Source: an uncultured Acidobacteriota bacterium (GTDB taxonomy: Bacteria > Acidobacteriota > Thermoanaerobaculia > Multivoradales > JAHEKO01). From it: a stretch of DNA of 64,000 nucleotides. A model generated the notes under the pieces. The model was not told where the DNA came from. It saw only the letters and a program-made list of their open reading frames with translations, and did not search any database. Numbering within the stretch: the first letter of the stretch is position 1; each line of letters starts with the position of its first letter. Shown here piece after piece: positions 7,713-64,000 of this stretch. The stretch covers positions 384,001 to 448,000 of the forward strand of contig CAVQNG010000005.1 in assembly GCA_963713825.1 (NCBI GenBank), in the 5' to 3' direction. The translations under genes and the position numbers were made by a program.

Positions 7713-8333
7713 GGGTTGAGGCGCCCGGCTCACCGCCGGGCGTTCTTTGAGGGCTTGGGGTTGAGGCGGCTGTCGCTAGCTCCAGCCGATCCTTGGGGCT
7801 TGGGTCCTGGGTTCTGTTCAGATGACTACGATCTCGTTGAGGTCCTTCCAGTTGGTCTGTAGGCGCTGACACCTGTTCGTTGTGGAGAGGGTCCGACGTG
7901 GGGCCCCCAGGGGGCTATCCTCCCTTCCACAGCATACAACCCCCTGGAGGTCCCACGCCGAACCCTCCTCGACTGGAGAGACCTCGCACATGGCCTTGCA
8001 CCGTTCTTAGACGAGGATCCACCAAGGGGTCTCCTGAGTCTGCGGCCTGCCCGTCGCAGACTGAGTAGCCGGCGCCGTCCTCCTGCGAACCACCCGGGCG
8101 GAACTCCACAGGAAAGTGACTACCTGCCAAGTCTCCCAAGCCCCCCAAGCCCCCAAGGATCGGTCGGCGAAGTCCCCGAGCGCCTCACCCCCAAGCCCTC
8201 AAGGAACAGCCGGAAGGAACGCCCGGCCGCTTTCACCCCCCACTGCCCCAAAGATCCGCTGGCAGAGAGCCAGCGGCCTCAACCCCAAGCCCCTAAGGAT
8301 CGGCTGGGAGGTACGACCGGACGCCTCAACCCC
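7713..8333. repeat. mosaic intergenic repeat, copy A (2 forward + 4 reverse REP-like units, long internal hairpin, inverted module P)
   Basis: Starts GGGTTGAGGCG at 7713 and ends CGCCTCAACCCC at 8333. Units are shared with 13235, 19438, 53485, 56057, 60741 and 63784. A 28-bp imperfect inverted repeat lies at 7887-7914/7940-7967. Confidence 0.9.
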
Positions 8334-8339
8334 ACTGCA

Positions 8340-8364
8340 GCGCTGTGTCGCAAAGACACAGCGC
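8340..8364. terminator. perfect 10-bp hairpin (terminator-like, no U-tract)
   Basis: GCGCTGTGTC-GCAAA-GACACAGCGC, lying between repeat A and uvrA. Confidence 0.4.
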
Positions 8365-8417
8365 GATAAGCTAGAGGGCTTGCCGGAAGACGGCAGGACC
8401 ACGGAAAGACACTATTG

Positions 8418-11276
8418 ATGCGCCGCAAGACAGCGATCGAGGTCCAGGGGGCGAGGACCCACAACCTCAAGAGCATCGACTGCCGGATTCCACACGGCAA
8501 GGTGACCGTTGTGACGGGACCTTCCGGCGCCGGCAAATCGTCGCTGGCGTTCGACACGGTCTTTGCCGAGGGGCAGCGGCGCTTCGTGGAGTCGATGTCC
8601 ACCTACGCTCGACAGTTCCTGGATCTGATGGAACGGCCGCCGGTGGAAGAGATCCGCAACATCCTCCCGGCCGTGGCGATGGAGTCCTGCAACGCGGTGC
8701 GCAATGCCAGATCGACGGTCGGCACGATCACCGAGGTCTACGACGTATTGCGCCTCCTCTACACCCACCTCGGTGAGGTCTTCTGTCAGCACTGCGAGGA
8801 GCCGGCTCGGACATTCACGGCCGCGGAAGCGGCGGCAGAGATGGCGGAAGGTGCCGTAGGCGAGAGGTTTCTCCTCGTAGTCCGCCTACCGAGGCCGTCG
8901 GGTGAAGCGGATCTGGCGCTTCGGGAGCTGATACGACAGGGCTTCGGGCGACGTCTGGAAGGCGATGAAGTGATTCGCATGGAGTCCACTGCAAGCTGGC
9001 CCAAGTCGTTGGATCCCCTGCCGCTTGTGCTCGGCAGGTTCCAGGCCAAGGAAGAGGCCACTGCGCAGGTGGCGGCGGCTGTCGAAGAGGGCTACCGCCT
9101 CAACCGGGAGCGCGTGGAAGCTCGCGGCGAAGCCGGATTCAGGTACGTGAAGTACTACGGCCCCAGCCTGATGTGCTCCACGTGCGGCGAGCTGATTCGC
9201 AAGCCGGAGCCGGCGTTGTTCTCGTTCAATTCGCCGCTCGGGGCCTGCCCCAGCTGTCAGGGCTTCGGGCGGGTCATCGGCATCGACCGCCAGAGGGTCA
9301 TTCCGGATCCGGTTTGGACCCTGGAGGAGCGACCCATCGCGCCCTGGAATACTCCGGCCTACGAGGAGCTTTACAAAGAGCTCTTCGCTGCCTGCGCTCA
9401 GGAAGGCATTCCCCTCGATGTCTCTTGGTGCGATCTTCCCGAGGAGGCGCGTGCTTTCGTCTGGTCCGGAAAGGGAGATTTCGTCAGTCTGGAGGCCTTC
9501 TTCGCCTGGTTGGAGCGCCGCTCCTACAAGGTTCATGTGAGGGTCTTGCTGGCGCGCTACCGTGCCTATGATCCTTGTCCGGACTGTGGCGGGACCCGTC
9601 TGCAGCCCGCGGCGCTCCGGGTCCGCCTCGAAAGCCAGACCCTGCCGCAGCTGGCGCAGCGCAGCATCGAGGATTTGAGGAGCTGGCTGGCGGCTCGAGA
9701 GTGGACCGATCGCCAAAGGGAGGTGGCTGGGCACCTTCTGGAGGAGCTCGACGACAGGGTCGAGTTTCTGCATCGAGTGGGATTGGACTACCTCTCCCTG
9801 GACCGCCAGGCCCGCACCCTTTCTGGTGGTGAGGCCCAGCGTATCCATCTGTCGGCGGCTCTCGGCTCGGGCTTGACGAGCACGCTGTATGTGCTGGACG
9901 AGCCGACGGTGGGGCTTCATCCGCAGGACAGCAGTCGCCTGGTCGATCTCCTGGTCGCTCTCTCCAATCGTGGCAACACCGTTCTGGTGGTCGAGCACGA
10001 CCGGACCCTGATTCAGGGCGCCGACCATGTCATCGATCTGGGCCCGGCCGCCGGCGAGCATGGTGGGGAAGTGATCGCCGAGGGGAATCTACAGACCATC
10101 CTGGACTCCGAGGCGTCGCTGACAGGTGCCTATCTCCGCGAGCGCCCTGCAACTCCCGCCCGCCGCCATATGGCTCGCTTCCGTCGAGAGCACGGCCAGG
10201 TGTCTCTGGCCGAGGAGGTGGCCTCGAAGCCGCGTATCGAGATCCGCGGAGCGCGGGCCCACAATCTTCAGGGCGTCGACGTCGAGGTGGCTCTCGGATC
10301 GATGGTGGCCGTTACGGGTGTGTCGGGTTCAGGCAAGTCGACGCTGGTCAAGAACGTCCTCCACGACAACTATCAGCGCGGCAGGGGAGTCGTCGATGTG
10401 GACCCGGGTGAGTGTGAGGAGTTGGTCGGTCTCGACCAGGTCTCCGACGTCGTTCTGGTCGATCAGCAACCACTGGGTCGGTCGGCGCGCTCGATTCCCG
10501 TCACCTATATCAAGGCCTACGACGAGATTCGCAAAGTCTTCGCCGCGACGACGGCCAGTCGCAAGCGCGGTATCAAGGCCGGCCACTTCTCCTTCAACGT
10601 CGAGGCCGGACGGTGCCCGGTCTGCAAAGGAACCGGCGCTCAGGAAGTGGACATGCAGTTCATGGCGCCGGTGACCGTGGTTTGCGACGAGTGCCAGGGA
10701 CACCGCTTCAAACAGGAGGTGCTGGCCGTCACCTATCGGGGGCTCAACATCGCCGAGACGCTCGAGCTGTCGGTGGAAGCCGCACTGCGCCATTTTGGCG
10801 ACCGCAAACGGCTCTGCCGTCGTTTGCAGTCTCTGGCGGATGTCGGGTTGGGCTATTTGCGGTTGGGCCAGCCGACTTCGACGCTATCCGGCGGGGAGGC
10901 CCAGCGCCTCAAGTTGGCGAGCTTTCTGGACCGCCCGACTGCCGGCAAACCTCGCTTGTTCCTGTTCGACGAGCCCACCACCGGTCTCCATATGTCGGAC
11001 ATCGATCTGCTGTATCAGACGCTTCGCAAACTGGTGCGAAGAGGCGACGGCGTAGTGGTTGTAGAGCATAGTCTCGACTTGATCTCGAAGGCCGATTGGA
11101 TCATCGACCTGGGGCCGGGAGGGGGCGTGCATGGTGGCAAACTGCTGTTCTCCGGCCCTCTGGAGCCGTTCCTGGACGAAATCGAAAGCCCGACGGCTGT
11201 CGAATTGAGGGGACACTTGCAATGGCGGTCCGATCGAGACGAGAGCGAGGAGGGAGCTGACGATGCCCCCGCCTAG
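8418..11276 (+). CDS. uvrA: excinuclease ABC subunit UvrA (divergent paralog type)
   Basis: Motifs GARTHNLK, GPSGAGKSSLAFDT, EGQRRFVES, FSFNSPLGACPSC, LSGGEAQRI, GVSGSGKST, YLRLGQ, LSGGEAQRLKLA and FDEPTTGLH, plus Zn-finger Cys pairs. Confidence 0.92.
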   Translation: MRRKTAIEVQGARTHNLKSIDCRIPHGKVTVVTGPSGAGKSSLAFDTVFAEGQRRFVESMSTYARQFLDLMERPPVEEIRNILPAVAMESCNAVRNARSTVGTITEVYDVLRLLYTHLGEVFCQHCEEPARTFTAAEAAAEMAEGAVGERFLLVVRLPRPSGEADLALRELIRQGFGRRLEGDEVIRMESTASWPKSLDPLPLVLGRFQAKEEATAQVAAAVEEGYRLNRERVEARGEAGFRYVKYYGPSLMCSTCGELIRKPEPALFSFNSPLGACPSCQGFGRVIGIDRQRVIPDPVWTLEERPIAPWNTPAYEELYKELFAACAQEGIPLDVSWCDLPEEARAFVWSGKGDFVSLEAFFAWLERRSYKVHVRVLLARYRAYDPCPDCGGTRLQPAALRVRLESQTLPQLAQRSIEDLRSWLAAREWTDRQREVAGHLLEELDDRVEFLHRVGLDYLSLDRQARTLSGGEAQRIHLSAALGSGLTSTLYVLDEPTVGLHPQDSSRLVDLLVALSNRGNTVLVVEHDRTLIQGADHVIDLGPAAGEHGGEVIAEGNLQTILDSEASLTGAYLRERPATPARRHMARFRREHGQVSLAEEVASKPRIEIRGARAHNLQGVDVEVALGSMVAVTGVSGSGKSTLVKNVLHDNYQRGRGVVDVDPGECEELVGLDQVSDVVLVDQQPLGRSARSIPVTYIKAYDEIRKVFAATTASRKRGIKAGHFSFNVEAGRCPVCKGTGAQEVDMQFMAPVTVVCDECQGHRFKQEVLAVTYRGLNIAETLELSVEAALRHFGDRKRLCRRLQSLADVGLGYLRLGQPTSTLSGGEAQRLKLASFLDRPTAGKPRLFLFDEPTTGLHMSDIDLLYQTLRKLVRRGDGVVVVEHSLDLISKADWIIDLGPGGGVHGGKLLFSGPLEPFLDEIESPTAVELRGHLQWRSDRDESEEGADDAPA

Positions 11277-11343
11277 CTGCCGCCGGCTGGCGGCACGAGC
11301 CTTGCACGATGATCCGAACAGGTCTTAGGATGCGAGAGTAACG

Positions 11344-12303
11344 ATGCCGATTGAGCCGATCGACTACCGTCCTACCCCTACGTGGGTGCGAGTTCTTGGA
11401 GTTGCAGCGGCAGTCTTTCTGGGATTGGTGTTTCTCGTCGCCGCCTGGGGCAAGGCTCTGGATCCGGTCGCGTTCGTCGAGCAGATCCGGACCGAAGGGC
11501 TCGACTTTTTCGGCCTGGCCCAAGCGATGGCCTTCTTCGCCCTGGGGCTCGAGATCGCACTGGGCCTGGCCCTGGTGACGGGCCTGCGGCGCTGGTGGGT
11601 TCTGGTGCCGACCGCGGTGCTGGTGGCTTTCTTCCTGTTTCTGACTGGCCGAGCCTACTGGCGCTTCGAGAATGGCTTGATCGATGAGACCGAGGCCTGC
11701 GGCTGCTTTGGCAACTTGCTGAACCGGACCCCAAAAGAGGCCTTTTGGCAGGACCTGGGGCTGCTGGTGGTACCCCTGGGCCTGAGCCTGGTCGGTCGTC
11801 CCAAGGGTGGCCCCTTCCCGAAAGGGCGTCTGGCGCTGATCGCCGCCTTGACGGCGGCGGTCCTCGTCCTAGCGTGGAAGGCCCCGGATCTTCCGCTCGA
11901 CAATCTGGCCACCCGTTTGAAGCCGGGAGTCGAGGTCAGCGAGATCTGCGCGGGGAGCGACGAGAATCCCGAGCAGCTTTGTTTGGATGCCCTGGTCAGC
12001 GATCTGACCCTGGGGAGGCACTGGGTGGTCCTCTCGGACCTTCAGGAGCCGGCCTTCCTGGAGGCGATACCACGACTCAATGAAGGGAGCACCTCGCAGC
12101 CGGAGGCTGGAGTTTGGGTTCTGACGGCTGCCTCGACGGAGACAGTGAGTACTTTTCAGTGGACTCAGGCCCCGGCCTTTGTCGTCCAGGAGGTGCCGTA
12201 TGCCATGCTGAGACCGCTCTTTCGGAGGCTTCCCCGGTCCTTTCTGGTGGAGGATGGTGAAGTCATCGAAACGGTCTCCGATTTGCCTCCCGAGGCGTTT
12301 TAG
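11344..12303 (+). CDS. MauE/DoxX-family membrane protein with C-terminal soluble domain
   Basis: Motifs FLVAAWGK..DP..F and E...G.AL, conserved CGCFG, five hydrophobic segments, then a C-terminal domain with a thioredoxin-like pattern but no CxxC. Confidence 0.75.
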   Translation: MPIEPIDYRPTPTWVRVLGVAAAVFLGLVFLVAAWGKALDPVAFVEQIRTEGLDFFGLAQAMAFFALGLEIALGLALVTGLRRWWVLVPTAVLVAFFLFLTGRAYWRFENGLIDETEACGCFGNLLNRTPKEAFWQDLGLLVVPLGLSLVGRPKGGPFPKGRLALIAALTAAVLVLAWKAPDLPLDNLATRLKPGVEVSEICAGSDENPEQLCLDALVSDLTLGRHWVVLSDLQEPAFLEAIPRLNEGSTSQPEAGVWVLTAASTETVSTFQWTQAPAFVVQEVPYAMLRPLFRRLPRSFLVEDGEVIETVSDLPPEAF

Positions 12304-12334
12304 GGCAGGCTATGGCGCATTCTGAAACGAGGGA

Positions 12335-13216
12335 ATGAAGATGAGAAGAGTTTTCGAGTCCAGAAAGAGACTTTCAATCAGCATCTCAGAGGCTTCGCGT
12401 GAGCCTCTAGGAGCGGTGGTTTCAACGGTTCTGGTCATGGCTGTGCTGATGACTTTGGCAGCCGGCCCGATTCTGGCGGCGGGACCGCCGATCTTCGGCT
12501 TCGAGCCGGTGGGCTTTCAAGTGACGCTGAACGGCAAAGAACTGCAGGGCATCGAGGTCTACCAGGCCCAGTCGGCTGGCGCGTTCTTGATCCTCTCCGA
12601 GGAGTTGGGCGCCCCCGTCCTCCTTCGTATGCGCGACGGACAAGTGGAGACGTTGGACCTGATGAAGGTGAATCACAATGCCAACGGCACGGTGGACGTG
12701 CTGGCCGGAGCCACCCTGGCAGCTCAAGGTGGATTCCAGGTCAACGCCGATCGCACCGGAGTCATGTTCATGGTCGGAGGGCAGACCGCCGAGCTGAAGG
12801 AGAAGCCCCCCCTTCTGGGCTCCCAGCAGGCTGCTGGCCTCAAAGCCTACGATCCCCACTACGAACGGACGGCCGAAGCCTATTCGCCGTCAGACCCGAT
12901 TGTCGAGAAGTTGCGACAGCAGGACCAAGACGTCAAGGTGTCGGTTTTCTTTGGCACCTGGTGCGGCGCCTGCAAGCAGATGGTGCCACGCATCATCGCC
13001 GTGGCCGACCGCCTCGAAGGGTCGAAGATCACCTTCGACTTCTACGGCCTGCCGCCTGGCATCGCCGGTGACAAAGAGGCAGGACGGATGGGCATCGAGG
13101 CCGTGCCGACCGGTGTCGTCTTCGTCGACGGCAAGGAAGCCGGACGCATCTCCGGCAACGGCTGGCGGGTCCCCGAGCTGGCGATCAACAATCTATTAGT
13201 CAACGGGCAGAGCTGA
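12335..13216 (+). CDS. exported thioredoxin-family protein
   Basis: Signal-like hydrophobic stretch, FFGTWCGACKQMVP, cis-Pro motif AVPT, GKEAGRI. Start codon uncertain. Confidence 0.8.
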   Translation: MKMRRVFESRKRLSISISEASREPLGAVVSTVLVMAVLMTLAAGPILAAGPPIFGFEPVGFQVTLNGKELQGIEVYQAQSAGAFLILSEELGAPVLLRMRDGQVETLDLMKVNHNANGTVDVLAGATLAAQGGFQVNADRTGVMFMVGGQTAELKEKPPLLGSQQAAGLKAYDPHYERTAEAYSPSDPIVEKLRQQDQDVKVSVFFGTWCGACKQMVPRIIAVADRLEGSKITFDFYGLPPGIAGDKEAGRMGIEAVPTGVVFVDGKEAGRISGNGWRVPELAINNLLVNGQS

Positions 13217-13234
13217 TCCCCACCCACCCTCCCA

Positions 13235-13745
13235 GGGGTTGAGGCGCCCGGCTCACCACCGGCCGTTCTTTGTGGGCTTGGGGTTGAGGCGGCTGTCGCT
13301 TGCTCCAGCCGGTCTCTGGGGCTTGGGCCTTGGGTCCTGAACAGACGATGATCTTCGTGTGGAGGCCCGTCCGGGTGGTCCGCAGGCGGACGGTGGCGGT
13401 TACACAGACTTTGACGGGGGACCGCCACCTCGTCTCGTCATCGCGCCCCGTCTCCTGTGCCCTATGAAGGATCCTGCGCCGCGCTCGACTCGGCGCCCCC
13501 TGTCGAACCACCCGAACGAACCTCTGGCACCGATGAACGCAGTAGGGGCTCAGGGGCGTAGGGGGTGGCGAGTCAGCCGATTCAATCTTGATGTGTGTCG
13601 AAGGTGGTAGATCGGGCCATGGGTCTCCCTCGTCGGAGGGGCATGGTCGGGTGAGGCCGCAGACGAGGGAGATCCCTGGTCCGATCGGCCGTCTCAACCC
13701 CATGCTCCAGGACGGATGAGTGGGCAGGGACGGCCACCGCAACCC
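13235..13745 (+). repeat. mosaic intergenic repeat, copy B (most complete: REP-like units - P - Q - octamer array - S hairpin - inverted unit)
   Basis: Colinear with 60741-61170 and with the reverse complement of about 53583-53950. It fills the gap between convergent genes. Confidence 0.92.
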
Positions 13746-15032
13746 TCAAGGCGAGCCGAGGGGGCGCCCGGTCAGTGCCTCGAAGGGGTGGATGCCGCCG
13801 TTGTGCCAGGTGGCGTCGGCGGCTTGGAGGTCGCCTGGGGTGGCGCATCGACTGATGCCGAGGGACTCGAGCGCGGGTCGCAGACGCCAGGCGGCGTCAC
13901 CGGCGAGCGCCGCACCCTGCAGGCGGCCGGCCCACGGCGCCAGAATTTCGGGCAGCTCTCCCAGGTTCTCGATCGGGTGGATTCTGATGGTTCTCATACC
14001 TGGTGATGGCTGAAACTCCATTTGAGGCTCGACCACGACGCTGCCAACCTCGATGGGCAGAGCCGCCGTGTGCAGGCCCCGCAGAGCAGCCTCCATACGA
14101 ATCTGCTGGACCCCGGCTGCGACCACGGGATCGGGTGGCCCAGGGGGCATCTCTCTGGCAGCGGTTGCCAGTTTGTCAGCAAGAGCTTGTGCCAGGCCGA
14201 CGGCGTCAGCAGCCGTGTAGATGGCTTGGATCGAGAGACACCCCCGCTGGTCGAACAAGACGATGTCTCGGGCCAGACCTTGGGCAACAGAGCTCGCTCC
14301 GACGTCGGAGCCGAGCACGGCAAGACTGGTCTTCGGACCGTAGGCGTAGACCTTGTCGGGGGCGCGCCGTTCGAGTGACTCGATGGCTGCGGTCTCTCCA
14401 TAGACGAGGAGCCGGCCTGCGGCCTCGAGCACAGGGGCTTCTAGAGCCGGGTCTCCACCTGGCCAGGTGATGGCGCCGATCGCCTCGCCCAGCAGCGACT
14501 TCCTTTGCGTCAAGGCTCGGACGAAGGCCGGCGTGAAGAGTGGCTCGGAGCTGGGCGACTTGAGGAGCATAGGCCTGCGCAGCAGGAGGGCCGGAAGTAG
14601 AGACTGAACCGCGAGGCCTGGGAGGTTCGAGGACAGGATCGCCACGAGGGGTGACGGGCCCCGTTCTGCTGTCCTGGCCTGTGCGACCAGCTCGAGGACG
14701 GCTGGTCCTCTAACGCCCCCGAGGACGACTTCCAATGCTGCTTGTAACCCAGCCGGTGACAGGCCAGAAAGTCTGGTCATGGCCGGGTCCAGCGCTCGGC
14801 GCTCGTCAGACTCGGGGTCGAGAAAGACAGCCACCGTCTCCTCCCAGGCGGCAATGATCTCGACATCCTGTAGCTCGTTCAAGGCTTCGACGCCGAGCGT
14901 TGACAGATGCCCCATCAGTCGTTCGAGCTCGGCTGGGCTCCAACGAGCCGAAGTGAAGCCGATCCCCTGCGCCTCGATCGCCGTCACCGACGATGGGCTG
15001 ATGGAGGGAGGCACAGCAGCGTCATGAATCAT
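13746..15032 (-). CDS. LuxC-like acyl-CoA/acyl-protein reductase
   Basis: ALDH-like motifs SSNLPG, LLKSPSSEP, ITWPGG, VYGE, YGPKTS, catalytic FDQRGCLS and C-terminal WHNGG. Confidence 0.85.
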   Translation of the reverse strand: MIHDAAVPPSISPSSVTAIEAQGIGFTSARWSPAELERLMGHLSTLGVEALNELQDVEIIAAWEETVAVFLDPESDERRALDPAMTRLSGLSPAGLQAALEVVLGGVRGPAVLELVAQARTAERGPSPLVAILSSNLPGLAVQSLLPALLLRRPMLLKSPSSEPLFTPAFVRALTQRKSLLGEAIGAITWPGGDPALEAPVLEAAGRLLVYGETAAIESLERRAPDKVYAYGPKTSLAVLGSDVGASSVAQGLARDIVLFDQRGCLSIQAIYTAADAVGLAQALADKLATAAREMPPGPPDPVVAAGVQQIRMEAALRGLHTAALPIEVGSVVVEPQMEFQPSPGMRTIRIHPIENLGELPEILAPWAGRLQGAALAGDAAWRLRPALESLGISRCATPGDLQAADATWHNGGIHPFEALTGRPLGSP

Positions 15033-15062
15033 GGTTCGTCCCAGTCCCTCAAACTCGAACAG

Positions 15063-15107
15063 GTCCCTAAGCCCCTAGGCCCCTAAGCCCTCGAGCCCCT
15101 TGCCCCA
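15063..15107 (-). repeat. degenerate 8-bp tandem array (TAGGGGCN)n, stand-alone
   Basis: gtccctaa gcccctag gcccctaa gccctcga gcccctt gcccca in the luxE-luxC spacer. Confidence 0.8.
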
Positions 15108-15116
15108 GCAAGGGTC

Positions 15117-16160
15117 TCAGACTTCAGTCAGCTCTTCCACCGTCAGCGAGCAACCCCGCAGCTCGGCTCCCGCTGCCCGTCCAGTCAGTCGGACGCCGCC
15201 GTCCTCGGCCATCCCGAGATCTTCGGTCAGCAGATGCACGGCCGAGCTGAGATTCGCCAGGTCGAAGAGGGCGATCAGGCCCTCCTTGCCCGGGGTCTGC
15301 TCGGCGAGTGTTGTCGGCTCGAGAATGCGGCATCTCACCCAGTGGGGTGGAACGAACAAGTCGGTGTCTCGGCCGACCAGGGCCTGGGTGTAGAGCTGAC
15401 TCGTGAGCTCCGTCATGCCGTATTCACGGACCACGGAGGAGGTTGCGATGCCGAGCCTCTCCGACAGGCGAGCGAGAAGATCGACTCGAGATACCTCCCG
15501 GGTACGGCCTTTGTAGCCCCCGGTCTCGAAGACGACGCTGCCGGCAGGCAATCGAAACCGTAGGTCGAGTCTCTCGAGGGCCTCGAGCAGAGTAGCCAAG
15601 GCAAAGGCCGTCGTCAGGAGGAGTGTCGCTCTGCCATCGCGCTGACGGGCCGCCAGGAACGATCGGGCCTTGGTGGCGTCCAAGCCCCGATTGCCGAACG
15701 CGGTCGAGCTCTCGGGCGCGCCGTGCTGGGCGAGCACGTGGTCGATCATGAACGAGAGGCTGGAATCGGGAGCCTGAGACCGAGTCGGAATCAGGGAGAG
15801 CATCGGGGGCCGGGTCATGGTCCCGAGGCAGGCCGGGGCGAAACTCGCATCGATGGTGGCGCGATACAGATCCGGGAAGCCATGCCTGTGCACACTTCGC
15901 GGCCCACCCGAGGTGCCGCTGCTGCGGAAAGTCTCCTGGGCCGGCGCCGCAGCGAGATCCATTGTCTTGAAAGCCAGCGTGGGCACCATCGGCACGTCGG
16001 ACCAATGAGCGACCTTGCCGGGGATCGCGTCGTGCTTTTCACAGAGGCGCCGCAGAGGTTCGATGTGCTCGAACTGATAGGCGAAGGCCTCCAAAGCCAG
16101 TTCCTCGAAGTTCGCGGTGGCCGATTCGGCGAGGTACTGGGTGATCTTTGAAGCCAACAT
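15117..16160 (-). CDS. LuxE-like acyl-protein synthetase
   Basis: Motifs FAYQF, FRSSGTSG (AMP-binding loop), SSLSFM, ETGGYKGR, EYGMTELTSQLY, TEDLG and C-terminal RGCSL (acylated Cys). Start at MLASKITQ. Confidence 0.88.
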   Translation of the reverse strand: MLASKITQYLAESATANFEELALEAFAYQFEHIEPLRRLCEKHDAIPGKVAHWSDVPMVPTLAFKTMDLAAAPAQETFRSSGTSGGPRSVHRHGFPDLYRATIDASFAPACLGTMTRPPMLSLIPTRSQAPDSSLSFMIDHVLAQHGAPESSTAFGNRGLDATKARSFLAARQRDGRATLLLTTAFALATLLEALERLDLRFRLPAGSVVFETGGYKGRTREVSRVDLLARLSERLGIATSSVVREYGMTELTSQLYTQALVGRDTDLFVPPHWVRCRILEPTTLAEQTPGKEGLIALFDLANLSSAVHLLTEDLGMAEDGGVRLTGRAAGAELRGCSLTVEELTEV

Positions 16161-16316
16161 CCCGCCGATTCTGCCATGAGGAGCGGCCAACAGGACGTCC
16201 GAGCCGTCTGGCCGGGTCCTGCGTGGAGCCGGAACAGGGAGGCGTGCCTTCTGGTAGAGTGCGGCAACTCGAGCCCAGAGCTCACAATAGAGAAGCACTT
16301 CAGGAGTCGGCAGAGA

Positions 16317-16685
16317 ATGGCTGAGACGTTTCCCTACCCCTACAAGGTCGAGGTCGACAAGGCACCTCGAGCCCGCGCTCCGAAGCAGGTTGCCGTCATC
16401 GACCAGACCGGTTGCACGGGCTGTGAGGCCTGCCTCGCCTTTTGCCCCGTCGACTGCATCGAGATCGTTGCCGGTCCGGAGCATCCCGATTTCATGAAGC
16501 TGGTCGAAGTGGATCTCGAGCGCTGTATCGGGTGTCAGCTCTGTGCCCGCTATTGCCCCTGGGAGACCATCGACATGTGGTCCTACGACGAAGGGGTCGA
16601 AGCCGCTCCAACCTTGACCATCCGTTCCTTGCTCTACAACTACGATCCGGAGCAGATGCACGAATCTGCGGAGAGCCGTGGCTGA
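16317..16685 (+). CDS. 2[4Fe-4S] dicluster ferredoxin (RnfB C-terminal-like)
   Basis: CTGCEACLAFCP and CIGCQLCARYCP. Divergent from luxE. Confidence 0.88.
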   Translation: MAETFPYPYKVEVDKAPRARAPKQVAVIDQTGCTGCEACLAFCPVDCIEIVAGPEHPDFMKLVEVDLERCIGCQLCARYCPWETIDMWSYDEGVEAAPTLTIRSLLYNYDPEQMHESAESRG

Positions 16686-16896
16686 AAAGGCAGGGCCAGA
16701 CCCGTCCCCCGGATTCGATCCCGAGCTGGACGCCGCGCTCAAGAAGGTGCTGCAGGTGATCTATAGGGAGCATCCCTTGAGCCCCAACCAGATCCTGGTC
16801 CTGAGCTCGGAGCTGCAGCGCATCGGGGTCCATCGGCTCGTCGAAGGACATCTGGACAAGTACCGCCAGCGCCACCTCGACGCCGAACCGGACTAG
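16678..16896 (+). CDS. small hypothetical protein
   Basis: 72-aa ORF with a GTG start overlapping the ferredoxin end, GGAG upstream and host-like codon usage. Confidence 0.55.
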   Translation: MAEKAGPDPSPGFDPELDAALKKVLQVIYREHPLSPNQILVLSSELQRIGVHRLVEGHLDKYRQRHLDAEPD

Positions 16897-16998
16897 CCAC
16901 CCCCATCTCGAGAGCTCGAAAGCTGGAGATTCAGGATAGCGTTGGAGCCACGTCGCAGCGCAGGGTTGGGCCGCGCCGTGGGTTCCAGGAATGTGGTG

Positions 16999-17601
16999 AT
17001 GCCGAACGTTCTCTTGGACGACACCAGCGAATCGGACTGGCAGCTGCTGTCCAGGACGGCTGAAGGTGAGGAAGATGCCTTCAGACAGTTGGTCGAGCGC
17101 CACCAGGATCGTCTGGTCGGGCTCTGTCAGCGGTTGCTCGGGGATCGCGAGGAAGCCCTGGATGCCGCTCAGGAGGTTTTCCTCAAGACCTACGGGAAGG
17201 CTGGCTCGCTGCAGCCGAAGGGTGAGCTCTTCACCTGGATGTATCGAGTGGCCACCAACCACTGCCTGAACCGAATCCGGCGTCGCAAGCTGGCTCAGTT
17301 CCTGTCTCTGACCCCCGATCCAGGCGCCGAGGCCGCGAGCCTGGAGCCGGTCGATAACGCGCCGGACGCCCTCGCCACCCTGGAGAGTAGGCGTCGCTGG
17401 CGGCAGACACTCGAAGCGATCGGGGCATTGCCGGAGAGCCAGAGAGTCGTGCTCATCCTGGCTCGATTCGAGGGTCTTCCCTATCGGCAGATCGGCGAGA
17501 TTCTGGGCATCTCGGAAGGAGCGGTCGAAAGTCGGCTCTTCCGGGCCATGCGACACCTCAAGGGGGCACAGGAATCTGCCTCTCTGGGGGTTTCAAGATA
17601 A
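16999..17601 (+). CDS. ECF RNA polymerase sigma factor
   Basis: Motifs AFRQLVERH, DAAQEVFLK, TWMYRVATNHCLN, LPESQRVVLIL and YRQIGEILGISEGAVESRLFRA. Confidence 0.92.
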   Translation: MPNVLLDDTSESDWQLLSRTAEGEEDAFRQLVERHQDRLVGLCQRLLGDREEALDAAQEVFLKTYGKAGSLQPKGELFTWMYRVATNHCLNRIRRRKLAQFLSLTPDPGAEAASLEPVDNAPDALATLESRRRWRQTLEAIGALPESQRVVLILARFEGLPYRQIGEILGISEGAVESRLFRAMRHLKGAQESASLGVSR

Positions 17602-17612
17602 GGGCAACGACG

Positions 17613-18053
17613 ATGGATCGAAAGACAGAACAACAACTGCTCCGACTACTGGTGGGCGAGCTTTCCGACGAAGCAGCCCAGAACCTGAGGCTGCGCCTGG
17701 AAAATGAGAGCGAGCTGCAGCACGCCTTCACCGTGTTGCAGGAGCGCTGGCAGACCCTCGAGCTCCCACCTCTCGAGACGGTGCATCCGAGCTTCACGAG
17801 TCGCGTCGTCCGCCAGGCCGTGACAGGACCTTCGTTCGAAGCTGCAGGCCTGGGTCGTTCTTCCCCCCTCTGGGCTCGGGCGACTGCCGCTGTAGCCCTG
17901 GCGGGCGGCATCCTCGTGGGCGTATTGCTGGCGAGTCCATCGGACACAGACGAATGGGCTGGCTGGAGTGCCATCGAGCAGACACAAGCCGAGGTTTACT
18001 GGGAGACGCTGAGTGCATCTTCGGACAATCTCGTGCGGGAGGACCTGCGATGA
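17613..18053 (+). CDS. putative anti-sigma factor (single TM)
   Basis: Directly after the ECF gene. N-terminal L..GEL anti-sigma-like helices without Zn ligands, and one TM (AAVALAGGILVGVLL). Confidence 0.7.
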   Translation: MDRKTEQQLLRLLVGELSDEAAQNLRLRLENESELQHAFTVLQERWQTLELPPLETVHPSFTSRVVRQAVTGPSFEAAGLGRSSPLWARATAAVALAGGILVGVLLASPSDTDEWAGWSAIEQTQAEVYWETLSASSDNLVREDLR

Positions 18054-18559
18054 AGCCGATCTGGCTGTGGATTGCCCTGTTGCTGTCGGTCGGCGTCAAT
18101 CTCGGCGTCTTGGCCACCGTCGGCACAACGCACTTGCGCGAGCCTGCCCGGTGGGAACGCGGCGCAAGAGAGGAGCGACCGCCGGTTGCGCGAGTCGCCG
18201 ATCGCCTCGGGCTCGAAGGTGAGAGCCGCGACGCGTTCATCCTGATCCAGAACGAGTTCTTTGAGGGCATGCAAGAGAGTCGTGAGGAGCTGGAGGACCT
18301 ACGGCATCAGCTCCGGCAGGAGTCGATGGCCGACAGTCCCGACCAGGCTGAAGTGGACAGGCTGATCGCGGAGATGGGGTTGGCCTACGCTCGGTTGGAT
18401 CGGGTGTTTGTGGACAACGTCCTGAAGAGCCGCGAGGTTCTGGATCCCGCCCAGGAACGAGACTATCTGAAGTTCTTGGAGAGGCTACAGCAACGGGGTC
18501 GTTCCGGCCACAGGAGACCGGAAGGTCCTCCCAGATCGCCAGTTGAGCGGCGACCATGA
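18050..18559 (+). CDS. periplasmic heavy-metal sensor / Spy-CpxP-CnrX-like protein
   Basis: ATGA overlap with the anti-sigma gene. Motifs LLLSVGVN anchor, LGLEGE, PDQAEVD and VLDPAQ (LTxxQ-like). Confidence 0.8.
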   Translation: MKPIWLWIALLLSVGVNLGVLATVGTTHLREPARWERGAREERPPVARVADRLGLEGESRDAFILIQNEFFEGMQESREELEDLRHQLRQESMADSPDQAEVDRLIAEMGLAYARLDRVFVDNVLKSREVLDPAQERDYLKFLERLQQRGRSGHRRPEGPPRSPVERRP

Positions 18560-18607
18560 AAAGGGCCTAGGGGTTTAAGGGCGTGGGGGTGTAGGGGTCT
18601 AGAGGCC
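18560..18607 (+). repeat. degenerate 8-bp tandem array (TAGGGGCN)n, stand-alone
   Basis: aaagggcc taggggtt taagggcg tgggggtg taggggtc tagaggcc, starting right after the stop codon. Confidence 0.8.
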
Positions 18608-18713
18608 TGGTCGTCGGCTCGAAATTTGCAAATGCACAGATGCAAGAAGCGCAGCGGCTTGATAGTCTGCGCGAACTTTGCGATTAAGGAAGGGATAATA
18701 AAAGGAGAATTCG

Positions 18714-19403: not shown

Positions 19404-19437
19404 AAGCGGCCGGTGTCCCTGCGGGACAGGCCGCGAC

Positions 19438-19762: not shown

Positions 19763-19798
19763 TTGAGGACCAAGCCCTGGGCTTGGGGCCGAAAAGGT

Positions 19799-19822
19799 GT
19801 GGCCCCACAGAAGTGGGGCCAC
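19799..19822. terminator. perfect 10-bp hairpin between convergent genes
   Basis: GTGGCCCCAC-AGAA-GTGGGGCCAC, with no clear U-tract. Confidence 0.45.
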
Positions 19823-53484: not shown

Positions 53485-53997
53485 GGGGTTGAGGCGGCTG
53501 TCGCTTGCTCCAGCCGATCTTTGCGGGCTTGGGGATGAGGAGCCCGGTCGTACCTCCGGTCTATCTTTGGGGCAGTGGGGCCCCCGACCATGCCCCTCCG
53601 ACGATGGAGGCCTCTGACCCGATCTGCCGCCTTCGAGGCGCATCGAGATTCCGACTACTGACTCACCCCTGACGCCCCTAAGCCCCTACACCCCTAGGCC
53701 CTCAACGGTGAAAGAGGTTCGTTCGGGTGGTTCGACAGGGGGCGCCGAGTCGAGCGCGGCGCAAGGCCCTTGATAGGGCACAGGAGATGGGGCGCGATGA
53801 CGAGACGAGGTGGCGGCCACCCATTGCAGTCTGAGTAGACGACGCCGTCCCCCGGCGAGCCACCCGGACGGACCTCTACGAGAAGAGAATCCAAGCCAGG
53901 TTCCAGGCCGGTCAGGGGCCGGTTGGAGCTAGCGACAGCCGCCCCAACCTCAAGTCCTCAGAGATCGGCCGAAGGAACGACGGCCGCTTCAACCCCC
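53485..53997 (-). repeat. mosaic intergenic repeat, copy F (core inverted relative to copy B)
   Basis: 2 forward units, then the reverse complement of S (partial), octamers at 53673-53704, Q at 53707-53816, P at 53841-53876, then 2 reverse units. Confidence 0.92.
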
Positions 53998-54044
53998 AGA
54001 GCCAATTGCCCTCGCCAGGTGGGCGCGATAGCATCCGGGACGTC

Positions 54045-56056: not shown

Positions 56057-56329
56057 ACCTCTGGCACCGGTGAAAGCACTAGGGGCTTAGGAGCATAGTG
56101 GCGTAAGGGCTTAGGGCAGTAGGGGGAGAGGGGCCTAAGGGTGTAACAGGCGTGTCAGTAGCCGGATTCGTCATGTGTGTTGAAGGTGGTAGATCGGGCC
56201 AGGGAGACCCATGGCTCGATCGGCGGTCTCGATCCCCAAGCCCCAAAGGCCGGCCGAGACGAAGTGCGGCCGGTTCAACCCCCAAGCCCTCAAAGAGCGT
56301 CCGGGAGGCACGACCGGACGCCTCAACCC
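56057..56329 (+). repeat. mosaic intergenic repeat, copy G (end of Q, 8 octamers, internally deleted S, 2 reverse units)
   Basis: acctctggcacc, octamers at 56080-56143, gaaggtggtagatcgggcc, and units ending CGCCTCAACCC at 56329. A hairpin follows at 56336-56359. Confidence 0.9.
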
Positions 56330-56360
56330 TCAAACCCTGACGCCCGTTCGGGCGTCGGGA

Positions 56361-59474: not shown

Positions 59475-59476
59475 CC

Positions 59477-60733: not shown

Positions 60734-60740
60734 AGCGGCA

Positions 60741-61210
60741 GGGGTTGAGGCGTCCGGTCGTTTCTCCCGGCCGATCTCTGGGGCTTGAGTCCCGGGTCCT
60801 GAACAGACGACTGTTTTCTTGAAGAGGTCCGTCCGGGTGGTCCGCAGGCGGACGGTGGCAGCTCATCAGACTGCGACGGGCTGGCCGCCACCTCGTCTCG
60901 TCATCGCGCCTCATCTGATGTGTTCTCTCGTGGCCCTTGCGCCGCGCTCGACGAGGCGCCCCCTTTCGCACCACCCGAACGAACCTCTGGCACCATCAGG
61001 GGCATAAGGGCATAGGGCAAATAGGGCGTAGGGGGCGATTCAGGAGCCGGATTCTTGATGTGTCTCGACGGTGGGTAGATCGGGCCATGGGTCTCCCTCG
61101 TCGGAGGGGCATGGTCGGGTGAGGCCGCAGACGAGGGAGATCCCTGGTTCGATCGGCCTCCTCAACCCCCGAGAGGACGCCGTCCCCCGGCGGACTACCC
61201 GGACGGACCT
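60741..61210 (+). repeat. mosaic intergenic repeat, copy H (colinear with copy B, plus terminal inverted module P)
   Basis: Unit at 60741, P at 60824-60859, Q at 60885-60994, octamers at 60997-61036, S at 61057-61158, inverted P at 61176-61210. Confidence 0.92.
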
Positions 61211-61253
61211 TAGCTCACAGGTGGTCGAATTGGGGGAGTGTAGGATTCCTCCT

Positions 61254-62987
61254 GTGACGGAACAGCGAGACTCGGTCGAGATTCAGGGCGACGAGGGTGA
61301 CCGCGAGGCAACGTGGTTGCGCCTGCTGCCGTTGGTGGCGGTGCTGGTGGCCACGGGCCCGCTGTTGCTGTGGGGCTTCCCTGCAGGGCACGACTGGGGC
61401 TGGGAGCTCGTTCGGATCGTCGAGTACCAGGAGGCATTCTCCTCGGGGCAATGGCTGCCCTTTTGGGCTGCCGATCTCTACAGCGGCTGGGGATCCCCGC
61501 TCTTCCTCTTCTATGCGCCGTTGTTCTCGGCCCTCGCCAGTGCCGGATCGGCGACCTTCGGATCTCTCTTGACGGGTCCGACACTGACCCTCGTCGTCCT
61601 GACGATGATCTCCGCCTTTCTCGTCGTGCTCATGATGGAGGCGCTCCCCGAGACGGCAGGTGATCACAAGAAATCCGCAGCGCGAGTGGCCGCCTATGTT
61701 TACATCCTGCAGCCGTATCTGCTCGCCGATCTGTTGATCCGCAACGCCAACGCCGAGTACACGGCGCTCTGTTTGCTTCCGCTGGTCTTCTACGGCGTGT
61801 TTCGGCTACGCGACCAGCCTCTCGTGGGGGCACTGGCTCTGGCTGCGGGTCTGGGTCTCAGCATTCTGGCCCACAACTTGACGGCGCTCATCGCCATGGG
61901 CATGGCCCTGCTCTTGACGGTCGTTCTCTTCCTGCCGACTCGATCGCATCGCCAGCTCGCCTGGGCGGGTGGGGGAGTGGGTCTGGGCCTTCTGTTAGCT
62001 GCCTGGTTCTGGATCCCGGCGCTGACACTCACCGGCCTGGTTCGACCCGAGCTGCTGGTGGAGGGTCGCTACGATTTTCGCGTCAACTTCCTCGACTTCG
62101 GGACCCTATGGGGCTACGGGGAGTATTTCTCGGCCGGACTCATGATACCTGTGATTTTCGTCGCCGGAGTGGTGCTGGCGGCCTCCTCCCGGTTGCAGTT
62201 GAACCCTTGGAATCGCCGTCTCTTCTGGTGCTTCCTCGGTTGCGCCCTCCTCGCTCTGCTGTTTCAGATGGCGGTCAGTCGTCCCGTATGGGAGGTGCTT
62301 CCCTTACTGCCGCTGTTTCAGTTCCCGTGGCGATTGATGGGCCCTCTAGCACTCCTGACAGCGACCCTGGCAGGACTGCTCTTCCTCGGTCTTACGGGTG
62401 GAATGAGGCGGAGGAGCGTGGTGCTACTCGAGCTTCTGGTACTCACCCTGTGTGTTGCGAACGCGTTGCCTCAGCTGCGAGGAGTCCGGTCCTTTTCACC
62501 GCAGGGCAGGGCTTCGTTGGAGGAGAGTCTGACGGCGGAGGCCATTCGCCAAGGGAGACAGAGCGCAACCGGGGTCGACGAGTACCTGCCGGACGGCGCC
62601 GATTTCGCAGCCTGGAAAGAGACGCCCCCAGGAACGCTGCTGTTGAATCCCTCCACCGACCTGAAGGTGCTGGCGATCGAAGAGCAGGGTACCCATATTC
62701 GGCTCGATCTGGAGGCTCTGCGCGAGACGCGAGTGCGTCTGGCGCGATGGTACTTTCCTGGTTGGAGAGCGAGCCTGAATGGTGAGACCCTAGCAGTCGA
62801 ACCTGGTACTGGAGGGGAGATCTCGGTGCTGGTTCCCAAAGGGCGAGGCCATCTCGACATCCTTCTCGAGCCGCCGCGGGTTCGTCAAGTGGCCACCTGG
62901 ATCAGTGCGCTGGCCGTGGTACTGTTCGTGCTCGCTTTCGTCGGGGCGCGTATCCTGCCATGGTTCGAACCGCCTACATCCTCCTAG
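61254..62987 (+). CDS. membrane protein of the 6-pyruvoyl-tetrahydropterin synthase-related / YfhO-like (GT-C-like) family
   Basis: Motifs GHD, PFWAADLYSGWGSPLFLFYAPL, many TMs, QFPWR, EYLP and YFPGW. The GTG start is preceded by TAGGAT 7 nt upstream. The longer ORF call extends into repeat H. Confidence 0.75.
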   Translation: MTEQRDSVEIQGDEGDREATWLRLLPLVAVLVATGPLLLWGFPAGHDWGWELVRIVEYQEAFSSGQWLPFWAADLYSGWGSPLFLFYAPLFSALASAGSATFGSLLTGPTLTLVVLTMISAFLVVLMMEALPETAGDHKKSAARVAAYVYILQPYLLADLLIRNANAEYTALCLLPLVFYGVFRLRDQPLVGALALAAGLGLSILAHNLTALIAMGMALLLTVVLFLPTRSHRQLAWAGGGVGLGLLLAAWFWIPALTLTGLVRPELLVEGRYDFRVNFLDFGTLWGYGEYFSAGLMIPVIFVAGVVLAASSRLQLNPWNRRLFWCFLGCALLALLFQMAVSRPVWEVLPLLPLFQFPWRLMGPLALLTATLAGLLFLGLTGGMRRRSVVLLELLVLTLCVANALPQLRGVRSFSPQGRASLEESLTAEAIRQGRQSATGVDEYLPDGADFAAWKETPPGTLLLNPSTDLKVLAIEEQGTHIRLDLEALRETRVRLARWYFPGWRASLNGETLAVEPGTGGEISVLVPKGRGHLDILLEPPRVRQVATWISALAVVLFVLAFVGARILPWFEPPTSS

Positions 62988-63763
62988 CTCTGCTACTGGC
63001 CCTTGTCGCCACGCCGTCGATGGCGGATTGGCAACAGGCTCCAGCCTTGGAATCGCTGGTCGGTGAGCGTCTGGACTTCACGCTCAAGTGGGGAATCATC
63101 TCAGCCGCCAAGGCGCGATTGGAGATTCTCGAGAGAGAGGACGGCGCCATCATTCTGCGAGCGAGTGCCCGCACCGTTCCCTTCCTGGATGCGATCTACC
63201 CGGTGCGCGAGACGGTGGAGTCGGCGGTGACACCTCCCGACATGCGGGTCCAGCGGTACTTCAAGAGCGGCAAGGAGGGCCGGGGCCCGACTGGCGAGGA
63301 CGAGATCCTGTTCGACTGGGAGCTGAAGACCGCAGTGCACACCCGAGACGGAGAGTCTCGAGACCCGATCGAAGTTCCCGCAGGAGTCCAGGACCCGCTA
63401 TCGAGCTTCTACGCCTATCGCGCGTCCAAGGTCCAGGACTATGGACCTGTGGTCCTCGAAGTTACCGATGGCAAGAAAGTCACGGCCGGAGAGGTTAGGG
63501 TGGTGGGGCGCGAGAAGGTCAAAGTGCCTGCTGGCACGTTCGATGCGGTCATCGTCGAACCCGAGATCGAAGGCGTCGGTGGGATCTTCAAGAAGAGTCC
63601 CAAGGCCAGCATTCGGATCTGGCTGACCGACGACGAATGGCGAACGCCCCTCAAGCTCAGGAGCAAGGTCTCCGTGGGGCACTTCACCGCCGTGCTGACC
63701 AAGATGAGCCGCGACCCGGCCCAAGGCGCCTGGGAAACCAGCGTCCCCCTCGCAGACGAATAA
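62960..63763 (+). CDS. DUF3108 domain secreted protein
   Basis: Signal peptide, GERLDFTLKWG, QDPLSSFY, VKVPAGTF, IWLTDD and PLKLR. Confidence 0.8.
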   Translation: MVRTAYILLALLLALVATPSMADWQQAPALESLVGERLDFTLKWGIISAAKARLEILEREDGAIILRASARTVPFLDAIYPVRETVESAVTPPDMRVQRYFKSGKEGRGPTGEDEILFDWELKTAVHTRDGESRDPIEVPAGVQDPLSSFYAYRASKVQDYGPVVLEVTDGKKVTAGEVRVVGREKVKVPAGTFDAVIVEPEIEGVGGIFKKSPKASIRIWLTDDEWRTPLKLRSKVSVGHFTAVLTKMSRDPAQGAWETSVPLADE

Positions 63764-63783
63764 GCAGCCCCGTTGGGGCTGCT

Positions 63784-64000
63784 GGGTTGAGGCGTCCGAC
63801 CCTGCCCACTCATCCGTCCTGGAGCTTGGGTCCTGGGTCCTGAGATGAGGTCCGTCCGAGTGGTCCGCCGGACGTTCTTTGAGGGCTTGCTGTGGAGGAG
63901 GGCGATCGAACCAGGGATCTCCCTCGTCTGCGGCCTCACCCGACCATGCCCCTCCGACGAGGGAGACCCATGGCCCGATCTACCGCTGTCGAGACACATC
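63784..64000 (-). repeat. mosaic intergenic repeat, copy I (truncated by window edge; S module inverted)
   Basis: The unit at 63784 matches the reverse complement of 13699-13745. A P fragment lies at 63847-63874. 63910-63984 is the exact reverse complement of 13606-13680. Preceded by a hairpin at 63764-63782. Confidence 0.92.

Follow-up and report, generated by a model that had tools for sequence, protein, structure and literature searches.

Inward-facing hairpin arrays around structured cargo: a modular intergenic repeat family of Thermoanaerobaculia resembling REP, BIME and REPIN elements

Seven intergenic spacers of a 64,000-nt stretch from an uncultured Acidobacteriota bacterium of the class Thermoanaerobaculia (contig CAVQNG010000005.1, positions 384,001 to 448,000; hereafter the window) hold differently assembled versions of the same few repeat modules, which raises the question of what kind of element these mosaics are. 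A first-pass annotation, made from the letters alone, had named the modules R (a hairpin unit of about 45 bp), P, Q, T (an octamer run) and S (a long hairpin), and had proposed a lineage-specific, recently active, module-shuffling element analogous to REP, BIME, REPIN and BOX repeats. The reading that we favour, with moderate confidence, is that the repeats are a lineage-specific REP/BIME/REPIN-like intergenic family of Thermoanaerobaculia (Acidobacteriota) organised as fold-back mosaics. Outermost are inward-facing arrays of directly repeated R units that begin within a few bases of a stop codon; inside the arrays lie a link sequence, the long PQ and U hairpins with inverted P-like arms as their closing stems, the S hairpin and T runs.

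Genes were called with a codon-usage caller of our own, and distances to stop codons are approximate where it misjudged a gene end. Self-comparison of the window (G+C about 62–64%) by BLASTN returned nine repeat intervals (7711–7865, 8042–8338, 13233–13745, 19435–19537, 19659–19765, 53480–54003, 56057–56331, 60739–61217 and 63784–64000) that merge into seven spacers, all intergenic according to the called genes and all agreeing within a few bases with the seven annotated copies. The only matches outside these spacers were two of 27 nt within ABC-ATPase genes, and no repeat coverage was found between 19.8 and 53.4 kb, in line with the annotated absence of copies from 19.9 to 53.4 kb. A find-repeats search recovered the same families plus long inverted matches, with the 53.5-kb copy inverted relative to those at 13.2 and 60.7 kb; the window copies diverge from one another by 5–28%. 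Modules P, Q, T and S were found as described, and the inverted repeat pairs bear out that the order R-P-Q-T-S-R′ is kept at 13235–13745 and 60741–61210 and inverted at 53485–53997. Beyond the annotation, 7866–8041 proved to be a further module (U) rather than unique filler, a "link" module joins the R array to P, and P and the end of Q form the two arms of one closing stem.

The R unit was examined with a covariance model (R1) built from 86 units and run with filters off. In the window it found 18 units at E<1e-4 and three weaker ones (63853–63889, 63784–63829 and 53902–53949), all in the seven regions, so that the earlier estimate of about 20 units holds; scores within the window range from 31 to 64 bits. 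Across the window and 72 loci from other genomes (550,061 bases), 165 units were found at E≤1e-4. R is a 46-nt unit consisting of a G-rich 5′ flank, a GC-rich hairpin of 6–7 bp and the tail ATCTTTGAGGGCTTGG. The core stem is of the type GCCGG...CCGGC around a pyrimidine-rich loop and is followed by AUCUUUG, the consensus flanks being TTGAGGCG before the stem and ATCTTTG after it. Adjacent units run head to tail with an overlap of two G and a period of 45–48 nt, and inversion concerns whole arrays only. Among 150 aligned units (140 distinct), the 7-bp stem was paired in 87.8% of cells, compared with 21–50% in slid controls, and all seven pairs showed changes on both sides (72 cells versus 14.6 ± 3.0 after shuffling, a value reached in none of 500 shuffles). 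This alignment leans towards structure because it was fitted to five of the seven pairs; the margin is large nonetheless. The loops are 77% pyrimidine, with CCTCC or CCTTC in 78 of the 150.

The position of R relative to genes was determined for 103 arrays of fuzzy-matched units, 96 of which have a neighbouring gene. Seventy of the 96 follow a stop codon directly and point in the direction of its gene (median gap 19 nt, 29 of them within 15 nt), 23 face a gene start and three overlap a called gene. In six arrays the stop codon is a TGA within the 5′ flank of the R unit itself. In the window, R starts 2, 19, 33, 2, 8 and 20 nt past the stops at 7711, 13216, 19403, 53484, 60733 and 63763, respectively. 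By spacer type, R occupies 34 of 67 convergent, 20 of 204 tandem and 6 of 60 divergent spacers, figures of which only the ratios are meaningful because the loci were chosen for holding R. The orientation of R relative to the other modules is trivially fixed by the inward-facing geometry.

Between the arrays, three modules fold into long hairpins. For PQ, 14 full copies align with sharp boundaries, and the consensus of the strand opposite the window + strand at 13361–13531 folds into a three-way junction of 47 pairs (–63.9 kcal/mol, versus –40.4 for the other strand). Pairing holds in 97.0% of its cells, with 14 double-sided cells versus 3.8 ± 1.7 after shuffling (0 of 500 reach this number), and one pair is C-G in seven copies, U-A in five and G-C in two. 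The closing stem spans 21 bp, and its U-G/U-A/C-G alternations turn into C-A mismatches on the opposite strand. U is an 83-nt hairpin with 26 motif matches in the window and the loci. When 24 copies were aligned with a second covariance model (R2) on the strand opposite the window + strand, 96.5% of the cells of its 25 pairs were paired (44–69% in slid controls) and 17 pairs showed changes on both sides, amounting to 76 double-sided cells versus 20.8 ± 3.7 after shuffling (0 of 500). RNAalifold, applied to a MAFFT alignment of U in + orientation, missed the long hairpin because indels shift the arms out of register. The strand opposite the window + strand was the more stable one in 23 of 23 U copies (mean –62.4 versus –46.3 kcal/mol), with 120 G-U pairs versus 21; the 24-nt apical loop is nearly invariant, and the basal stem exists in several fully compensated versions. 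The eight full copies of S likewise combine one conserved 27-nt loop with three compensated stem versions, and one strand (the window + strand for the 13.2-kb copy) is the more stable in eight of eight. On their pairing strands, the U and S loops carry GGAGG-type purine runs, complementary to the CCTCC/CCTTC of the R loops. Proper pairing of U, PQ and S on one strand only, by way of G-U/G-T wobbles, shows that selection has acted on a single-stranded form.

A P-like 17-mer forms the closing arms of PQ and also of one U subfamily, and P-like arms bound modules as inverted ends of 17–26 bp that are shared by unrelated interiors. With up to three mismatches, the 17-mer was counted 69 times in family DNA (550 kb) but just once in unrelated control loci (119 kb); this enrichment, together with R scores of 31–64 bits, indicates that the repeats are not due to chance. 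T is a run of G-rich octamers. The window has ten G-quadruplex motifs, of which T runs account for five. Two of these five fall outside the seven copies, in short spacers: the one at 15059–15106 separates the LuxC-like from the LuxE-like gene and is G-rich on the coding – strand, and the one at 18562–18597 is upstream of an outer-membrane protein (OMP) gene. Both T-like runs look like minimal members of the family. The TGGCACC at the end of PQ and U was considered as a sigma-54 site and the idea dropped, as the –12 element stands at no fixed distance by eye, and a promoter in the T/spacer region was likewise rejected, no conserved –10 being seen by eye.

The family extends to other genomes. 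One R-pattern scan of genome contigs gave at least 91 stretches, and all locus counts here are among the matches listed. Further repeat homology to the window was found at 72 of 91 loci (numbered with the prefix L below), which come from six or seven metagenome-assembled genomes (MAGs) labelled Thermoanaerobaculia or Acidobacteriota; by MAG prefix there are 30 loci in JBATEX, 18 in JAUVRX, 10 in CAMYLC, nine in JAUWSP, three in JARFQS and one in JAUWTE; the last of the 72 is L021, described below. The remaining 19, from unrelated phyla (Pseudomonas, Geobacter and others), are single sites of at most 34 bits without arrays and were put down to chance. L021 (JBATJK010000232.1, 2347 bp) is 95% identical to window positions 18896–21225, and four other loci are syntenic with the window at 76–85% nucleotide identity (among the matches listed). 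L021 is binned with a Gemmatimonadota MAG; the synteny partners of the matching part of the window are all Thermoanaerobaculia or Acidobacteriota MAGs, and L021 is probably mis-binned. Many MAG contigs end inside repeats. The comparison with Rfam that had been suggested earlier was run and matched no family: at gathering thresholds the whole window gave 0 matches, and at E≤10 the regions 7500–8500 and 13100–13900 gave generic hairpins (microRNA precursor models; DUF3800-IV at 26 bits versus 60.7). A sensitive blastn search of the PLSDB plasmids returned no match to the repeats, and literature searches turned up no publication on REP-type or miniature inverted repeats in Thermoanaerobaculia. 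The annotated idea of a lineage-specific modular family is thus upheld by its presence in these six or seven MAGs and the absence of Rfam and PLSDB matches.

The seven copies in the window are composed as follows.

Copy 1 (7713–8333)
Left flank: PBP1-like gene (Pfam) ending at 7711 (TAG), the array beginning 2 nt later
7713–7758 and 7758–7803, + strand: left array of two R units (R1, 62.1 and 42.9 bits)
7804–7865, + strand: link, then P-like closing-stem arm (17-mer 7839–7855), from direct-repeat families and the P motif
7886–7967, – strand: U hairpin (83-nt model R2, 93.6 bits), with a near-perfect stem on the – strand alone and the conserved apical loop
7968–8144: U extension, degenerate S-like hairpin (about 8020–8066), inverted P arm (8090–8106) and inverted link
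8145–8191, 8192–8238, 8240–8285 and 8285–8332, – strand: right array, inward-facing R units (R1)
Right flank: UvrA-like gene (Pfam) starting at 8415, 82 nt beyond the array
Copy 2 (13235–13745)
13236–13326, + strand: left array of two R units, 19 nt past the stop of a thioredoxin-domain gene (ends 13216)
13361–13531, – strand pairs better: PQ (annotated earlier as P and Q), three-way junction with 21-bp closing stem, from alignments and folds
13542–13600, + strand: T octamer run (13542–13566) and spacer before S
13601–13695, + strand more stable: S hairpin, stem of about 25 bp, conserved 27-nt loop
13699–13745, – strand: degenerate inward R, abutting the stop of a LuxC-like gene (13746–15032, – strand)
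Copy 3 (19438–19762)
19437–19528, + strand: left array of two R units, 33 nt past the stop of an OMP beta-barrel gene (ends 19403)
19529–19666, + strand: G-rich T-like octamers and low-copy cargo (19585–19666), the latter also in L021, L019 (inverted) and L081
19669–19714 and 19715–19762, – strand: right array, inward-facing R units, 128 nt from the stop of an XPD-like helicase gene (ends 19891, – strand)
Copy 4 (53485–53997)
53486–53578, + strand: left array of two R units, 2 nt past the stop of a SpoIID/SPOR gene (ends 53484)
53583–53701, – strand: half S (53583–53650) and T (53673–53698), both inverted
53707–53876, + strand (the better-pairing strand): PQ, inverted relative to copy 2
53902–53949 (weak) and 53950–53995 (strong), – strand: right array, inward-facing R units, upstream of an acyl-CoA dehydrogenase gene (starts 54006)
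Copy 5 (56057–56329), truncated
56057–56231, + strand: PQ-end fragment 12 nt past the stop at 56045, T run (about 56080–56150), spacer and S remnant
56236–56281 and 56282–56329, – strand: R units, followed by an extra hairpin (about 56336–56358) and the stop of a – strand gene at 56361
Copy 6 (60741–61210)
60742–60823, + strand: R unit (60742–60788) and link, 8 nt past the stop of an FtsX-type permease gene (ends 60733)
60824–60994, – strand: PQ, with the exact P sequence of the first-pass annotation at its + strand 5′ end
60995–61163, + strand: T (61011–61036), spacer and S hairpin (61069–61163)
61172–61211, – strand: lone inverted P arm, whose orthologue in L023 ends an intact inverted PQ
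Copy 7 (63784–64000), cut by the end of the window
63784–63829: degenerate R, followed by link
63847–63863 fused to 63853–63889: P arm and R tail
63895–63989: inverted S

The 7.7-kb copy is thus a complete symmetric element: two R units, link, P, U with an S remnant, inverted P, inverted link and four inverted R units. GC-rich unique hairpins stand between an R array and the adjoining gene at 8335–8360, 19786–19823, 56336–56358 and 63765–63783. The ones at 56336 and 63765 come immediately after stop codons and continue into a flank of the R type, which looks as though an R array could be headed by any terminal hairpin.

Comparison of orthologous sites reveals stable anchors around changing interiors. 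At all four window sites with an orthologous locus (19.4, 56.1, 60.7 and 63.8 kb), R arrays keep their place at corresponding gene ends even though gene identity between the species is only about 77–83%. In the 19.4-kb comparison (L021, L012 and L019), L012 lacks a low-copy segment that L019 carries in inverted form. At 60.7 kb, compared with L023 and L035, the PQ(+)-T-S of the window is replaced in L023 by U and PQ(–), the two having the right-hand P arm and the downstream unique sequence in common; the 56.1-kb site was compared with L035 and the 63.8-kb site with L023. In the close pair CAMYLC/JBATEX, flanks that are 95–97% identical enclose unlike elements: the interior of an R hairpin has been swapped, there are extra R units, a link/R′ segment is missing and 87 bp are deleted between two direct P-like repeats. 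At a second site of this type the cargo is unrelated. The annotated reshuffling and inversion of modules can therefore be seen both at orthologous sites and within a close pair.

The claim of recent activity found no support in these comparisons. PQ copies are mostly 72–92% alike and do not cluster by genome, and the median identity of repeat pairs of 80–800 nt is 82% whether the partners share a MAG or come from different ones; the highest value inside one MAG, about 96%, is to be read with the caveat that short-read assemblies lose near-identical copies. Moreover, fixation of R at the same gene ends across species at the four sites is an outcome that the annotation itself had named as an argument against mobility. 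One PQ copy (13361–13531) is 99% identical to that of L022, from another species and with different neighbours, and only 84–86% identical to the other two PQ copies of the window. Overall, this looks like an old family with stable anchors, the interior of which has been remodelled mainly by recombination among its own repeats. Along the helicase gene, identity to L021 per 100 nt swings between 87% and 100%, which suggests recombination tracts.

The enzyme that might have mobilised the family was sought in the window and around the relatives' elements. All 49 called window genes look housekeeping in Pfam searches (for example a PBP1-type transglycosylase/transpeptidase, a UvrA-like ATPase, LuxC/LuxE-like enzymes, an XPD-like helicase, DnaK, SpoIID/SPOR, CarA and DAHP synthase), and none is a transposase, as annotated before, nor an integrase or reverse transcriptase; the window holds no tRNA. 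Among the locus proteins, the 78 of 355 adjacent to elements were Pfam-scanned, and 75 of these carry no mobile-element domain, most being housekeeping and some without any match. The other three are an IS110-family transposase (L038), a group II intron reverse transcriptase (L056) and an IS3-type integrase (L085). In L038 (JAUVRX, 1–1510), the IS110-family element (transposase 410–1375) lies inside the conserved flank of an inward-facing R. To its left are the R hairpin and the first part of the flank, to its right the remainder of the flank together with a T run and two further R units, and an identical 7-nt string stands at both ends of the element.

The other two sites are noted in their own right. 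In L056 (JAUWSP, 6295–7732), about 140 nt separate a group II intron reverse transcriptase/maturase gene on the – strand from an R unit located after a universal-stress-protein gene, and the 5′ exon of the intron is beyond the locus; class C group II introns sit behind terminators. In L085 (JAUWTE, 1–1400), a U-like hairpin lacks its 5′ arm, and the IS3-type element (rve integrase), whose end is about 40 nt short of the remaining 3′ arm, appears to have cut this hairpin. Within the window, a 267-aa protein (49509–50312) encoded downstream of dnaK and a MerR/HspR-like gene matches just the AAA part of IstB_IS21 (E 7e-13) and is probably a DnaC-like ATPase rather than part of an insertion sequence (IS), because no IstA-type transposase adjoins it. 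Elsewhere, positions 1697–2872, adjoining a GH127 glycosidase gene, encode a RuBisCO large-chain-like protein with a weak partial match (E 2.5e-16), which may be a RuBisCO-like protein rather than a carboxylase.

No RAYT gene flanked by repeats was present among the window genes, the scanned 78 of 355 locus proteins or the results of a motif search for HUH plus Y in the 550 kb. No parent IS with P-arm ends was seen in the 550 kb either, the IS110, IS3 and group II elements beside the repeats having no P ends. In agreement with the annotation, no target-site duplication was visible by eye at the outer R ends in the window, nor at the 14 aligned PQ copies.

In the REP/BIME/REPIN-like account that we prefer, R would be transcribed as the 3′ end of the upstream gene, its hairpin serving to terminate transcription or to block exonucleases. 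R units that abut the stop codon may also modulate translation, as E. coli REPs do; PMC12306157 describes ribosome stalling at REPs within 15 nt of a stop codon. The initial spread might have depended on a hairpin-recognising, single-strand-specific RAYT/TIRYT (HUH) enzyme that is encoded elsewhere or has since been lost, and Acidobacteria carry RAYT-like TIRYT genes together with terminal inverted repeat (TIR) families according to PMC3733652. The present shuffling of modules would mostly be due to recombination, homologous or illegitimate, between copies of R and P, which are numerous, rather than to fresh transposition.

A number of results weigh against this account. The alignment of R contains no GTAG/CGTC tag at the stem ends, CGTC being seen just inside some loops. 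As a terminator, R has a short U tract (four U in seven), and a simple terminator scan found 8 sites versus 8.1 expected, with one R unit flagged. No HUH/Y1 transposase was found among the 78 of 355 Pfam-scanned locus proteins or, by a crude motif search, among all open reading frames of at least 90 aa in the 550 kb. In U and S the apical loops are most conserved, not the ends, which is the pattern of a functional RNA and not of a REPIN. A transposition intermediate made of one single strand cannot account for both PQ and S in copies 2 and 6, where the – strand is the best-pairing one for PQ and the + strand for S. The orientation of the modules shows no bias relative to GC skew (U 15 versus 11, PQ 9 versus 7, S 6 versus 2), unlike that of IS200/IS605-type elements. 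Finally, window positions 19404–19890 are 99.2% identical to L021, the closest relative among the matches listed (four substitutions over 487 nt, plus a T-unit indel of 17 nt), and the flanking genes are only 96.5% and 94.4% identical, which hints at constraint or recent recombination rather than neutral junk.

Several of these points would be expected if U, S and PQ were multi-copy genes or processed segments for structured non-coding RNAs, insulated by R arrays acting as inward terminators, with the conserved purine-rich GGAGG loops of 24–27 nt as working parts that might, for example, pair with the CCUCC/CCUUCC loops of R or with the anti-Shine-Dalgarno sequence. The conserved loops on covarying stems with 96–97% of cells paired, the strand-specific pairing through G-U, the pyrimidine-rich R loops described above and the conservation of the 19.4-kb copy beyond its flanking genes all fit such RNAs, as does the fixed arrangement in three window copies of PQ and S around T with opposite pairing strands. 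However, a copy number of 26 U matches in 550 kb is repeat-like, many copies are truncated or interrupted, the modules are oriented at random relative to the direction of flanking genes, and no Rfam family was matched. In addition, no conserved –35/–10 is apparent by eye in the T/spacer, and a simple promoter scan, which showed no enrichment, placed one promoter-like site in 7000–20500 and none inside a repeat copy. We regard non-coding RNA genes as an unlikely origin. Still further from what we expect, though of wider consequence, is that U, S and PQ are the RNA or single-strand parts of an undescribed system between inward terminator arrays, whose GGAGG loops pair the R loops or the anti-Shine-Dalgarno sequence. 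If true, these loops would pair R hairpins at the 3′ ends of hundreds of mRNAs and form a genome-wide, repeat-encoded layer of post-transcriptional control.

The sharp module boundaries, the inverted P-like ends of 17–26 bp on unrelated interiors and the module sizes of 85–170 bp would also suit ordinary miniature inverted-repeat transposable elements (MITEs), with PQ and U derived from a DDE-type IS that recognised the P arms as double-stranded terminal inverted repeats, and landing between R arrays. We rate this origin as improbable: no target-site duplication is visible at the module ends, no IS with P ends was seen in the 550 kb, the interior stems covary, and the arm mismatches are nearly all G-T on one strand, which double-stranded recognition of the repeats does not predict.

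Similarly doubtful is that the repeats are host regulatory DNA or RNA (terminators, 3′ untranslated region elements) that was never mobile and kept its likeness through gene conversion and local duplication. R does stand at the same gene ends in four species-level comparisons, tightly and codirectionally beside stop codons, and no near-identical long copies were found within one genome. Yet many unrelated loci carry these modules, in either orientation, some arrays (23 of 96) are directed at gene starts, and the PQ copy at 13361–13531 is closer to the non-orthologous one in L022 (99%) than to those in its own window (84–86%). An assembly artefact is refuted for practical purposes, because the same modules were assembled independently, at syntenic positions, in six or seven MAGs of different projects, and the window copies differ by 5–28%.

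REP-type repeats have been well studied in Proteobacteria, and the present family extends the theme to Thermoanaerobaculia. It offers four separately covarying hairpin modules with conserved loops, a strict tie to stop codons, and a natural set of alleles rearranged from species to species, and is thus material for asking whether such repeats are selfish, domesticated or both, how they shape mRNA 3′ ends, and how IS110-type elements choose repeats. In practice, the repeats break short-read MAG assemblies, as the many contigs ending there illustrate, and can mislead binning.

Among known systems, eukaryotic Foldback transposons also have long terminal inverted repeats of short tandem sub-repeats around a variable middle. 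The likeness is one of analogy only, as they belong to another domain of life without homology and the mobility of the present family is unproven. BOX (Streptococcus pneumoniae), ERIC, Correia and RUP are modular MITE-like repeats. With BOX-type repeats the family has in common a variable mosaic of few box types, intergenic location, stable hairpins and no encoded transposase; it differs in its unrelated sequence and host phylum, in its larger number of module types (R, link, PQ, U, S and T) and in its outer inverted arrays of tandem hairpin units. Like intrinsic terminators, R is a GC-rich hairpin with a U-containing tail that follows stop codons and points inward in convergent pairs. However, its tail is only AUCUUUG, G-rich flanks and family-wide identity are not features of terminators, 23 of the 96 arrays face gene starts, and the simple scan found no enrichment.

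Closer relatives are the REPIN-RAYT/TIRYT systems, in which two inverted arms form one long compensated hairpin, and U and PQ are built in this way, with compensatory stems, pairing specific to one single strand and no target duplication. At the same time, P-like arms bound both modules as terminal inverted repeats, a feature of MITEs. Unlike in those systems, no RAYT/TIRYT was present in the sequences examined and the loop, not the arm, is the most conserved part of U and S; the GGGGWSAS motif that PMC3733652 gives for some TIRs is not evident by eye in P.

The annotated analogy to BIME, REP, REPIN and BOX elements is apt, with position, clustering and hairpins resembling REP/BIME and with U and PQ resembling REPINs. 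According to PMC3733652, the two large REP super-families are 20–40 bp palindromes with a GTAG or CGTC tetranucleotide at one end, and REP ends often supply stop codons. Insertion of IS110 elements into REPs is described in PMC1525189 and PMC12288879. R matches this picture as a short palindromic stem-loop in many intergenic copies. Like enterobacterial REP/BIME (PMC3733652 and PMC12306157), it forms clusters of short GC-rich imperfect palindromes with conserved linkers in 3′ untranslated regions and convergent spacers, lies near a stop codon or supplies it, and is a target of the IS110 family. It has no sequence similarity to them and bears neither the GTAG nor the CGTC tag. BIME units, moreover, are of two types that alternate in orientation one by one, whereas R units are direct tandem repeats, conserved linkers included, that are inverted as whole arrays with long structured cargo between them. 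As it has neither the tag nor unit-by-unit alternation, and no associated transposase was seen in the sequences examined, we class the family as a new one within the REP/BIME/REPIN kind.

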